From Escherichia coli (lineage in GTDB: Bacteria > Pseudomonadota > Gammaproteobacteria > Enterobacterales > Enterobacteriaceae), in the NCBI RefSeq assembly GCF_003334315.1, contig NZ_QOWR01000087.1: DNA of 10,895 nucleotides. One strand, 5' to 3'. Positions 95-8,084 of the stretch are shown piece after piece (the first letter of the stretch is position 1; each line of letters starts with the position of its first letter). Under the pieces are notes generated by a model that ran no database searches, had not been told where the DNA came from, and worked only from the letters and a program-made list of their open reading frames with translations. The translations under genes and the position numbers were made by a program.

Positions 95-877
95 CTACCC
101 ACTAACGCTAAACAACGCATACGTATTATTAAGCAACACTTCGGCAATCTCATCTTCTGGTTCCGGGCGCAACTCGCAAAGCACGTCAAACACCCGCACA
201 GCCTGTTCCGGTCGGTTAGGCTGCCCCTGAAAGCCGTTGAGCGGCATATCCGGCGCGTCGGTTTCCAGCAACAACGATGCCAGCGGTAATTTTGCGATGA
301 CATCGCGGGTTTTACTGGCGCGTGGATAGGTGATAGTACCGCCTACGCCGATTTTGTAGCCCAGCTGTACAAACCGCTCGGCCTGTTGCAGGCTGCCGGA
401 AAAACCGTGAACCACGCCAGTGCACGGTAAATTGTGACGTTTAAGATGCATCGCCAGTTTGTCGTGTGTACGCCGGGAATGAAGGATCACCGGCAGATCG
501 TAGCGTTTCGCCAGTTTCAGCTGTTCGTCGAGTAACCACTGCTGCCTCTCAAATTGCGGATCGTCGCCGAAGAGATCCAGACCGATCTCCCCCACCGCCA
601 CCACCTTCGCCGGACGCCTTTCCAGCGCCTGCTGTAGCTGATCAAGAGACACATCGCTATGTTTTTCCAACATCCCCGGATGCAACCCCAATGCGGCATA
701 CAGCGGTTGATATTTTTCCGCTAACGCCTGCACGCGGGCAAAATTTTCCGCCTCTGTCGCCGGAACAATGATCTTGCCTACGCCCGCTTGTGCCGCGCGT
801 TGCAGGCTGGCCTCTTCATCGCCACTAAACGGCGGGAAATCAAAATGGCAGTGGGTATCGATAAAACGGCAAATCAA
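95..877 (-). CDS. yjjV: TatD-family metal-dependent hydrolase (deoxyribonuclease-like) YjjV
   Basis: 260-aa ORF beginning MICRFIDTHCHFDF with the HxH metal-binding motif typical of TatD/amidohydrolase proteins. Start codon is TTG (rc of 875-877) and overlaps the yjjU stop as TTGA; the exact start is uncertain. Confidence 0.85.
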   Translation of the reverse strand: MICRFIDTHCHFDFPPFSGDEEASLQRAAQAGVGKIIVPATEAENFARVQALAEKYQPLYAALGLHPGMLEKHSDVSLDQLQQALERRPAKVVAVGEIGLDLFGDDPQFERQQWLLDEQLKLAKRYDLPVILHSRRTHDKLAMHLKRHNLPCTGVVHGFSGSLQQAERFVQLGYKIGVGGTITYPRASKTRDVIAKLPLASLLLETDAPDMPLNGFQGQPNRPEQAVRVFDVLCELRPEPEDEIAEVLLNNTYALFSVSG

Positions 878-1947
878 GCCAGATCCTCATTGTTAAATGT
901 CGGGTCGTTCGCCTGCGGAGCATCGCTCACTTCGGCAACCAGCGTATCGTTGGCGACTGGCGCAGGCGGAATAACGATCGATTCCGGCGTCACCACTGGC
1001 ACCAGATGGCGGGTAAGCGGCGCTTTTTCAGTTAATAGCTTGCCAACCGTGGCGAGGAAATAACGACCGCATAAACGCCCAAGTTTATAGTCTTCACGCA
1101 GCGCCGGAATCCGACTGCCAAGCGCGATACTATGTAATGGTTTCGGTGGATAAATTTCGAATATCCGCAGCTTGCCCGGTGGTTTCTCAATAAATTGCTG
1201 AATGTCACGATAGCTGGTTTCATGATGCTGCACCAGATTGACCAGCGGCTGCAGGCTACTGTCACCCAGCCAGCGTTCCATGCGTTTGAACCACTGCGGC
1301 GTGTAGTACATTTGTGACGGCACAGTGCGGATGACGACCAACGTTTTAGCGCCCTGCCTTGCCGCCTCTTTAACCGGAATCGCATCACTGATCCCGCCAT
1401 CCAGGTAGTTAATGCCTTCCAGCGACACTCCGCTACGATAAAAGCCAGGTATCGCACTGGAGGCGCGAATCACATCCAGCCAGTTTTGTTTGGTTGGTAA
1501 AAAGTAATTAGGCGCGTAGTCATCCTGACGACAGGCGCACATATAAAACGATTTGCCGCTGTCAAACAACCGCGCGGCGGTATCCATTTGCAACGGCATC
1601 TGGCTTGCGGTGGCCTCCACCAGCCAGTCGAGATCGATAAGATTTCCTCCACGGACAAAGCGCAATGGATCGAAAAATTCGCGTTTTGTGGTATAGCGCA
1701 TGATGACTTTGCGCGCGTAACCGGGCTGATTGCAGATAAACGCCGAGAGGTTCTGCGCCCCGGCAGATGTGCCGAGATAAAGATCGAAAGGATTAAACTG
1801 CGCGCGCATAAACTCATCCAGCACGCCAGCCGTGAAAATTCCACGCTGTCCGCCGCCTTCGCACACCAGAGCTATTCGTCCAGGCTGGAACGGCCTTAGC
1901 GACAACGGCGCAATATTACCAAGCGTTACAGGTATTCGCTGCCCCAC
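874..1947 (-). CDS. yjjU: Patatin-like phospholipase YjjU
   Basis: ORF contains patatin hallmarks: GGGQRG oxyanion hole, GTSAG (GxSxG) nucleophile motif and a DGG catalytic Asp motif. The track ORF starts at TTG 1983 (369 aa); I chose GTG at 1945-1947 because it is preceded by AGGAAGG at a 5-nt spacing and gives 357 aa, matching my recollection of K-12 YjjU. Confidence 0.85.
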   Translation of the reverse strand: MGQRIPVTLGNIAPLSLRPFQPGRIALVCEGGGQRGIFTAGVLDEFMRAQFNPFDLYLGTSAGAQNLSAFICNQPGYARKVIMRYTTKREFFDPLRFVRGGNLIDLDWLVEATASQMPLQMDTAARLFDSGKSFYMCACRQDDYAPNYFLPTKQNWLDVIRASSAIPGFYRSGVSLEGINYLDGGISDAIPVKEAARQGAKTLVVIRTVPSQMYYTPQWFKRMERWLGDSSLQPLVNLVQHHETSYRDIQQFIEKPPGKLRIFEIYPPKPLHSIALGSRIPALREDYKLGRLCGRYFLATVGKLLTEKAPLTRHLVPVVTPESIVIPPAPVANDTLVAEVSDAPQANDPTFNNEDLA

Positions 1948-2014
1948 CTCTGCCTTCCTGTTTTTGTTGTGAAAGAATGACAAAGTAACGCAATTTATTA
2001 TTCGCTAAAACCGC

Positions 2015-2040
2015 AAAAGCCAGTCCGCTGGACTGGCTTT
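2015..2040 (-). terminator. Rho-independent terminator downstream of ytjA (possibly bidirectional)
   Basis: Perfect 8-bp GC-rich stem gccagtcc/ggactggc (2019-2026 and 2030-2037) with a 3-nt loop, flanked by AAAA and TTT. On the minus-strand transcript it is followed by UUUGCGGUUUUAGCG. Confidence 0.6.
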
Positions 2041-2962: not shown

Positions 2963-3206
2963 CGATTTATTCCTGTAAGTTTGCTCGTAATTTGAGCCTG
3001 GCAACACGAGGTTGCATTGCTGAATAGGGAGAGACTTCACCCTCTACAGAAGTCAATGGTCGCCATCACAAAAGCGATGGGTGATGAATAACGACCATTA
3101 CAGCCTCTGAATCAGTTATTAATATCGGTAGAATGACAATCTACGGCTTTAGATACTGATATCTACGCATTGAACGGTATTTAACGCCGTCAGAAATGTC
3201 ATTACT

Positions 3207-7700: not shown

Positions 7701-7880
<180 letters not shown>

Positions 7881-7997: not shown

Positions 7998-8084
7998 GCG
8001 AAGGTGGCGGAATTGGTAGACGCGCTAGCTTCAGGTGTTAGTGTCCTTACGGACGTGGGGGTTCAAGTCCCCCCCCTCGCACCA
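7998..8084 (+). tRNA. tRNA-Leu (anticodon CAG), leuQ/leuP/leuV family; single copy in this window
   Basis: 87-nt sequence gcgaaggtggcggaattggtagacgcgctagcttcaggtgttagtgtccttacggacgtgggggttcaagtcccccccctcgcacca. It has class II tRNA features: long variable arm, CAG anticodon in the loop cuUCAGgu, T-loop GGTTCAAGTCC and an encoded 3' CCA. Confidence 0.95.

Follow-up and report, generated by a model that had tools for sequence, protein, structure and literature searches.

The yjjU–yjjV junction of Escherichia coli is an ordinary four-nucleotide operon overlap between genes with predicted GTG and TTG starts

A spacing of −4 nt, in which the stop codon of one gene and the start codon of the next share the tetranucleotide NTGA, is the commonest arrangement among co-directional gene pairs of E. 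coli (PMC10666635). Termination–reinitiation has been shown experimentally in several E. coli pairs of this geometry, where the final 15 nt of the upstream gene, with the Shine–Dalgarno sequence that they contain, suffice for re-initiation, which drops sharply in the tested native pairs once stop and start are separated (PMC10666635). For instance, the coupled pairs trpB–trpA, menD–menH and hyfH–hyfI are co-directional, carry an NTGA junction and have the Shine–Dalgarno sequence of the second gene within 15 nt of the end of the first (PMC10666635), and yjjU and yjjV are likewise co-directional neighbours with an NTGA junction and a Shine–Dalgarno sequence within the last ~15 nt of yjjU. The described pairs usually have ATGA (or GTGA) and their coupling has been measured, whereas the yjjU–yjjV junction reads TTGA and its coupling is a prediction.

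Both genes of the yjjU–yjjV pair open with a codon other than ATG, namely GTG for yjjU and TTG for yjjV. The initial annotation had described such starts as non-canonical, a label that has to be dropped since both codons are standard: GUG opens 14% and UUG 3% of E. coli genes, and initiation at them reaches 10–100% of the level of AUG (bioRxiv 10.1101/063800). The truly non-canonical AUU starts of infC and pcnB have in common with yjjU and yjjV a start that is weaker than AUG, but UUG and GUG are standard starts and nothing suggests an autoregulation of the IF3 type here.

The pair was analysed in a window of 10,895 nt from an E. coli genome (the whole stretch of DNA under study; RefSeq assembly GCF_003334315.1, contig NZ_QOWR01000087.1), in which the minus strand carries prfC, osmY, ytjA, yjjU and yjjV in this order, the last two adjacent and co-directional. 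Positions 60–2100 are 100% identical to E. coli strain 13C1065T, whose RefSeq/PGAP annotation gives a yjjU of 1074 nt and a yjjV of 783 nt overlapping by 4 nt, with the same starts as here. K-12 MG1655 (b4377, 4612411–4613484; b4378, 4613481–4614260; yjjUV in RegulonDB) has the same GTG, TTG and TTGA as well; its YjjU shares 99.7% amino-acid identity, while its YjjV has 259 aa against 260 aa here and is 94.6% identical, with the differences concentrated in the 3′ half of the gene and none at the junction. The two genes are listed as one transcription unit in RegulonDB and are alike induced by YdeO, in the YdeO>GadE acid-resistance cascade (PMC4222967). The 60–2100 stretch was found with fixed synteny in 5424 of 5426 complete E. 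coli genomes. Salmonella, Klebsiella, Citrobacter, Enterobacter and further Enterobacteriaceae have the same osmY–ytjA–yjjU–yjjV synteny, the 4-nt overlap, a Shine–Dalgarno sequence of the GAGGAT type and the yjjU GTG, and differ from E. coli in having GTGA rather than TTGA at the junction. This is an ordinary yjjU–yjjV operon junction, as already annotated, without any departure from known biology, and the analysis adds no more than a firmer comparative basis for the two predicted non-ATG starts and a clear evolutionary reading of the TTG.

The tetranucleotide TTGA was read directly on the minus strand at 877–874, where the yjjV start TTG (877–875) overlaps the yjjU stop TGA (876–874), and the identical RefSeq and K-12 annotations agree with the initial annotation that the two genes share it. 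The yjjU frame ends ...GAG GAT CTG GCT TGA, and the yjjV frame begins TTG ATT TGC CGT TTT ATC GAT ACC CAC TGC CAT, so that the first base of the TTG is the wobble base of the last YjjU codon (GCU, Ala) and the TG after it opens the UGA stop. Such a tetranucleotide is trivial by itself; its placement is not due to chance, because an in-frame TGA lies just upstream at 889–887, the next NTG of the yjjV frame comes only at codon 49, and NTGA recurs in 61 related loci.

The yjjV coding sequence (95–877, minus strand; stop TAG at 97–95) encodes, according to the open reading frame list and its translation, a 260-aa metal-dependent hydrolase of the TatD family (group II, HxH), in which the TTG is the first start after a stop. 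The in-frame TGA (887–889, minus strand) stands four codons 5′ of the TTG and closes the reading frame upstream. A Shine–Dalgarno sequence GAGGA (884–888, minus strand), made by the yjjU codons GAG GAT (Glu-Asp), is located 6 nt 5′ of the TTG, and its anti-Shine–Dalgarno duplex of −6.1 kcal/mol ranks in the top 5.7% of window positions. The NCBIfam equivalog NF008522 scores 573.9 bits against YjjV (cutoff 481) and covers residues 1–258, and the sequence DTHCH at residues 7–11 supplies the N-terminal HxH motif (His9/His11) by which the group II TatD enzymes, YjjV among them, are defined (PMC10085689); YjjV is accordingly assigned to the YjjV/YcfH type of this group. The chain of crystallised E. 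coli YjjV (PDB 1ZZM; match E = 1e-164) begins MICRFIDTHCH, and the orthologous start codon in relatives is GTG or ATG. The annotation, the upstream TGA, the 1ZZM N-terminus, the coverage by NF008522 and the orthologous GTG or ATG together support TTG 877–875 as the start of yjjV, where the initial annotation had placed it. The following codon, ATT 874–872, was considered as a start and rejected, codon 2 not being start-like in relatives. A programmed −1 frameshift generating a YjjU–YjjV fusion was rejected as well, the yjjV frame being shut by TGA 889–887 and the remaining 10 nt containing no slippery heptamer.

The yjjU coding sequence (874–1947, minus strand) encodes a 357-aa patatin-like phospholipase according to translation, Pfam and annotation. 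YjjU contains a Patatin domain at residues 27–195 (Pfam PF01734, E = 3.8e-23) and a DUF6363 domain at residues 234–305, and its translation displays the motifs GGGQRG (oxyanion), GTSAG (serine) and DGG (aspartate), by which it is classified as a patatin-like phospholipase. The gene identities given in the initial annotation, a patatin-like lipase and a TatD-like hydrolase, were borne out by PF01734 and NF008522, respectively. The GTG start (1945–1947, minus strand) is preceded, across a 5-nt spacer, by the Shine–Dalgarno sequence AGGAAGG (1953–1959, minus strand), whose GGAA core is conserved in relatives and whose anti-Shine–Dalgarno duplex with this start reaches −6.5 kcal/mol, a value within the top 3.6% of window positions. 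The Shine–Dalgarno sequences of both genes are thereby of moderate strength. The N-terminus predicted from this start is (f)MGQRIPVTLGNIAPLSLR.

The comparative scan, with one genome per species, yielded 80 loci across Enterobacterales, of which ~75 were used and 71 served for the yjjU start. The aligned first codon of yjjU is NTG in all 71 (GTG in 57, TTG in 12 and ATG in 2), bases 2 and 3 being invariant. Column entropies over the same loci show that the low-low-high pattern of coding sequence begins exactly at the GTG, with no pattern upstream, and residues 1–26 are conserved as protein with variation at the wobble positions. Alignments in tblastn searches with YjjU reached residue 1 in essentially all loci, and the NCBI entry for Salmonella YjjU begins at the equivalent of the GTG, MGQRIPV. 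In E. coli, the context of the GTG was present in 5419 of 5426 genomes in a 28-mer test. The start of yjjU at GTG 1945–1947 downstream of AGGAAGG, which the initial annotation had judged the most plausible, is upheld by the annotation, the codon periodicity and the NTG in 71/71 loci. Both genes of the pair carry an NTG at the point where coding conservation begins, and neither has a better in-frame start upstream.

Initiation at other codons of the two genes was weighed against these assignments. Internal initiation of yjjV, which would make the TTG overlap coincidental, might be entertained on the ground that no other start codon comes near ATG in frequency; the candidates within the gene are GTG codon 49 (733–731), which is the next in-frame ATG, GTG or TTG after the TTG and lies beyond the HxH motif, and ATG codon 69. 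The product of such a start would be devoid of His9 and His11, that is, of the HxH motif which defines group II TatD enzymes (PMC10085689), and residues 1–48 are conserved, form part of the crystallised chain and fall within the family profile; a GTG or ATG stands moreover at the orthologous position of codon 1 in relatives. The comparative evidence excludes an internal start, named in the initial annotation as the alternative for yjjV, and the residual probability that can be given to it is negligible. For yjjU, the corresponding alternative was TTG 1983–1981 (minus strand), which opens the longest open reading frame (874–1983, 369 aa) as its first NTG and would yield the 369-aa protein of one E. 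coli entry in nr. However, this TTG has no Shine–Dalgarno sequence (+0.4 kcal/mol), neither codon periodicity nor amino-acid conservation is found upstream of the GTG, and the TTG sits in a conserved promoter-like motif just 3′ of the ytjA terminator hairpin. An upstream in-frame start candidate is missing altogether in 43 of the 71 loci, and an in-frame stop occurs in the 36 nt that precede the GTG in 32 of the 71, in which the equivalent of TTG 1983 is therefore unusable. TTG 1983 was rejected as a start on this comparative evidence, and translation from it is very improbable. A few database entries for YjjU are longer, with 369 aa for E. coli and 364 aa for Salmonella, where an in-frame ATG seven codons 5′ of the GTG equivalent was taken as the start; the comparative evidence shows these automated calls to be too long.

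The region between ytjA and yjjU contains a stem-loop followed by UGCGGUUUU (2016–2040, minus strand), with a folding energy of −17 to −20 kcal/mol (z = −2.9) that was equalled in 0 of 200 shuffles. It is likely the terminator of ytjA as judged from the folding model, which would place the promoter and 5′ UTR of yjjU within the ~70 nt downstream. A simple terminator scan did not call this hairpin, and a promoter scan of the gene strand from ytjA to yjjU found no sigma-70 consensus promoter.

In the initiation-profiling and N-terminomics literature consulted, no direct mapping of initiation or of the N-terminus was found for yjjU or yjjV, and the supplements of the TRAINSPOTTER N-terminomics, acid-stress Ribo-seq and Salmonella riboproteogenomics studies hold no entries for the two genes. 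As the pair is not highly expressed, this silence is uninformative. The literature consulted also yielded no published test of whether translation of yjjV depends on that of yjjU. In the available part of the report on INRI-seq, an in vitro method that uses a synthetic transcript pool, three weak alternative peaks are given, comprising an out-of-frame TTG at yjjU +25 (12 CPM, 2 of 5 replicates), an in-frame GTG at yjjU +81 (1 replicate, below the calling rule of that study) and an out-of-frame ATG at yjjV −13 (1 replicate); within that part of the report, alternative peaks of yjjU and yjjV occur in vitro only and none in vivo.

Across Enterobacterales, yjjU is located directly upstream of yjjV in nearly all scanned loci. 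The −4 overlap with NTGA is present in 61 loci spanning Enterobacteriaceae, Erwiniaceae and Serratia, as GTGA in 46, ATGA in 13, including Erwiniaceae (Pantoea, Erwinia), and TTGA in two, E. coli and E. albertii. GTGA was also found in the separately retrieved Salmonella enterica, Klebsiella pneumoniae and a Citrobacter-like lineage. In ten further loci, among them those of Xenorhabdus, Photorhabdus, Budvicia and Mangrovibacter, the genes show a −1 overlap or stand 0 to 11 nt apart, and nearly all of these have ATG as the start; in one locus yjjV is distant from the yjjU match, which is limited there to residues 1–119. The junction base that varies is the third position of the final Ala codon (GCN) of YjjU, at which A, G and T are silent and each provides a yjjV start. 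A C at this base was met in one locus with yjjU upstream (Mangrovibacter), where an ATG comes next to it (CTGATG). The Glu codon contributing to the yjjV Shine–Dalgarno sequence is GAG in 47 of the 47 loci with Glu at this position and GAA in none; because neighbouring synonymous sites vary, this is good evidence that the yjjV Shine–Dalgarno sequence is under selection.

Within E. coli, the junction base was examined with a 55-mer query in which every 28-nt seed word had to span base 877. At least 5388 of 5426 genomes have T at this base and none has the G variant; all 5424 genomes bearing the locus have at least 90% identity here, and the most divergent one still carries TTGA. The comparison shows GTGA as the ancestral junction of Enterobacteriaceae and the TTGA of Escherichia as a derived G-to-T change, because the relatives carry GTGA or ATGA and TTGA is confined to E. 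coli and E. albertii. Being synonymous for yjjU, the T of Escherichia may reflect neutral drift and not any tuning. One nucleotide here serves as the wobble base of the last yjjU codon and as the first base of the yjjV start, which makes the junction a textbook case.

The reading that explains these observations best, and that very probably holds as a whole, is that of the annotated yjjUV junction with GUG and UUG starts, likely termination–reinitiation and a TTG derived by drift. Ribosomes would initiate yjjU at GUG 1947–1945 via AGGAAGG and yjjV at UUG 877–875 via GAGGA; those terminating at the yjjU UGA would sit on the Shine–Dalgarno sequence and start of yjjV and re-initiate there, and fresh 30S subunits could bind at the same Shine–Dalgarno sequence as a second route. 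The change from GTGA to TTGA in Escherichia would have been silent in yjjU and left a usable start, most simply by near-neutral drift at a site where C alone is forbidden. Non-AUG starts on both genes would be compatible with a modest expression of this stress-induced pair. The initial annotation had suggested low, coupled translation. Coupling between yjjU and yjjV is plausible because the 4-nt overlap and the Shine–Dalgarno sequence inside the last yjjU codons are conserved across families, while low translation is only inferred, from the identity of the start codons alone. RNA folding was unusual neither at the junction (z = +0.28) nor in the yjjU start region (z = −1.39), so nothing suggests an obligatory coupling through unfolding, and the idea that the yjjV start is masked by a structure and freed by translation of yjjU was dropped.

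De novo binding of 30S subunits to the GAGGA of yjjV, with the overlap reflecting compact packing without coupling, is possible but rather less probable than the coupled reading of the junction. It is favoured by the Shine–Dalgarno sequence itself, with its ideal 6-nt spacing, its −6.1 kcal/mol and the constraint on the synonymous site that forms it, by a start region that no RNA structure sequesters, and by Xenorhabdus, Photorhabdus and Budvicia, whose genes lie 0–11 nt apart with an ATG of its own for yjjV. Yet the overlap is kept in 61 loci of several families, the relatives without it also stay within a spacing of −8 to +6/+11 nt, and re-initiation dominates in the tested E. coli pairs of this geometry (PMC10666635). 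The weak starts could also be actively selected, in that a lipase and a nuclease, both potentially harmful, would be kept low and matched, the T of Escherichia being a further down-tuning. The yjjU start is non-ATG in 69 of the 71 loci, with several switches between G and T and only two occurrences of ATG, 48 of the 61 overlapping junctions have GTG or TTG for yjjV, and E. coli is all but fixed for the TTG; that ATG is so rare at the yjjU start across the order is suggestive of a tolerated or preferred weak initiation. However, phylogenetic non-independence leaves few independent changes, about four to T (the G/T switches) against two to A, Erwiniaceae have ATGA junctions without apparent problem, the first base of yjjV is the wobble base of the yjjU Ala codon, which tolerates A, G and T alike, and in Salmonella and E. 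albertii an in-frame ATG stands seven codons 5′ of the yjjU GTG. Active selection for weak starts is on balance unlikely.

Different from the above readings of the junction, a role in anti-phage defence, as a module combining a CBASS CapV lipase with a Qat QatD nuclease, was considered and rejected, since the scores are far under the cutoffs (CBASS_lipase 25.1 bits, cutoff 200; QatD 104.5 bits, cutoff 230) and the locus is core and syntenic; PADLOC gave partial or weak matches only on the locus. It has also been considered that selection locks the two non-AUG genes together across Enterobacterales, with YjjU and YjjV forming a stoichiometric pair and possibly a lipase–nuclease complex, which is improbable on present evidence. 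Natural fusions of Patatin and TatD domains were absent from the best 120 homologues of YjjU, all of which are close relatives. YjjV purified alone is reported to show poor solubility and weak activity (PMC10085689); if the two proteins did form such a pair, these properties would reflect the missing partner, and coupled synthesis at a low level would matter for folding or for avoiding toxicity.

The junction matters little beyond the quality of annotation, for which the comparison gives firm support to two predicted non-ATG starts. If the conserved coupling corresponded to a physical or functional partnership, which is speculation, it would provide a lead to the function of this acid-stress-induced pair.

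In the spacer between ytjA and yjjU, the motif TGCGTTACTTTG (1981-1992, minus strand) recurs in relatives, being found also in Escherichia, Salmonella, Klebsiella, Citrobacter, Kosakonia, Phytobacter and Enterobacter, where the yjjU start follows it at a distance of about 35-48 nt. With its sequence TG-C-GTTACT, in which C occupies -13, the motif looks like an extended -10 element; RNA polymerase binding in the same spacer has been reported from genomic SELEX (PMC3946193). The TTG at 1983, which opens the longest yjjU reading frame and was rejected as the yjjU start, sits within this motif and may be absent from the transcript of the operon's own promoter. Directly past ytjA, the minus strand carries a hairpin, AAAGCCAGUCC-AGC-GGACUGGCUUU, followed by UGCGGUUUU (2016-2040), which is probably the ytjA terminator. 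RNA folding characterized it as stable (z-score -2.9), with none of 200 shuffled sequences folding equally well; a simple terminator scan made no call at this hairpin.

Three further codons on the minus strand gave weak alternative initiation peaks in vitro in INRI-seq, which uses a synthetic transcript pool, namely an out-of-frame TTG at +25 of yjjU (1921-1923), an in-frame GTG at +81 of yjjU (1865-1867), and an out-of-frame ATG located 13 nt before the yjjV start (888-890), which would open an ORF of 16 codons. Among the relatives, Salmonella enterica (locus L085, 1501-1524) and E. albertii (locus L005) bear an in-frame ATG 7 codons (21 nt) upstream of the conserved yjjU GTG, a position occupied by AAC in E. 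coli. Automated calls on assemblies yield a 364-aa YjjU because of this in-frame ATG, which overlaps the Shine-Dalgarno region in both loci, while the NCBI annotation starts YjjU from the GTG equivalent rather than from the upstream ATG.

Compared with K-12, yjjU (1074 nt; 874-1947) differs by about 8 SNPs and yjjV (783 nt; 95-877) by about 45, 18 of the latter falling at 100-199, and the amino acid identities are 99.7% for YjjU and 94.6% for YjjV, the C-terminus of which is unlike that of K-12 (260 aa in the window versus 259 aa). This step in divergence within the operon suggests that a recombined stretch ends here or that the sequence is variable next to the REP-rich region downstream, where REP-like palindromes (gcctgatgcgacgc...) lie within 1-94, directly downstream of yjjV. 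A REP-derived element, the nucleoid-associated RNA naRNA4 (7768-7850, minus strand; Rfam match, 70.3 bits), is placed between rsmC and the tRNA.

The latter is a single tRNA-Leu(CAG) (7998-8084, plus strand), while K-12 (leuQ-leuP-leuV) and strain 13C1065T, which is identical to the window over 60-2100, both possess three tandem copies in the rsmC-yjjZ interval. The spacing to fhuF (8500) is about 235 nt shorter in the window than in these two strains, corresponding to two repeat units, and the single copy reflects either true copy-number variation or assembly collapse. Regarding the copy number of the yjjU-yjjV stretch itself, 3 of its 5428 matches in the E. coli genome collection were on plasmid-labelled records, and some genomes of the same collection harbour two copies.

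Inside yjjV, TGGCATCGTTGTTGCT (267-282, minus strand) lies in the sense orientation and departs from the sigma-54 promoter consensus at a single position; overall, matches to this consensus across the window were no more frequent than expected by chance. The K-12 yjjV gene, b4378, is reportedly mentioned in a genome-wide study of sigma-54 binding.

The yjjU-yjjV junction takes another form in four Xenorhabdus loci (L057, L058, L075 and L080), in which the two genes share one reading frame (junction near 2990-3000) and are parted by a lone stop codon, TAA or TAG, with an ATG directly after it. In these loci, a single substitution or stop-codon readthrough would generate a YjjU-YjjV fusion protein.
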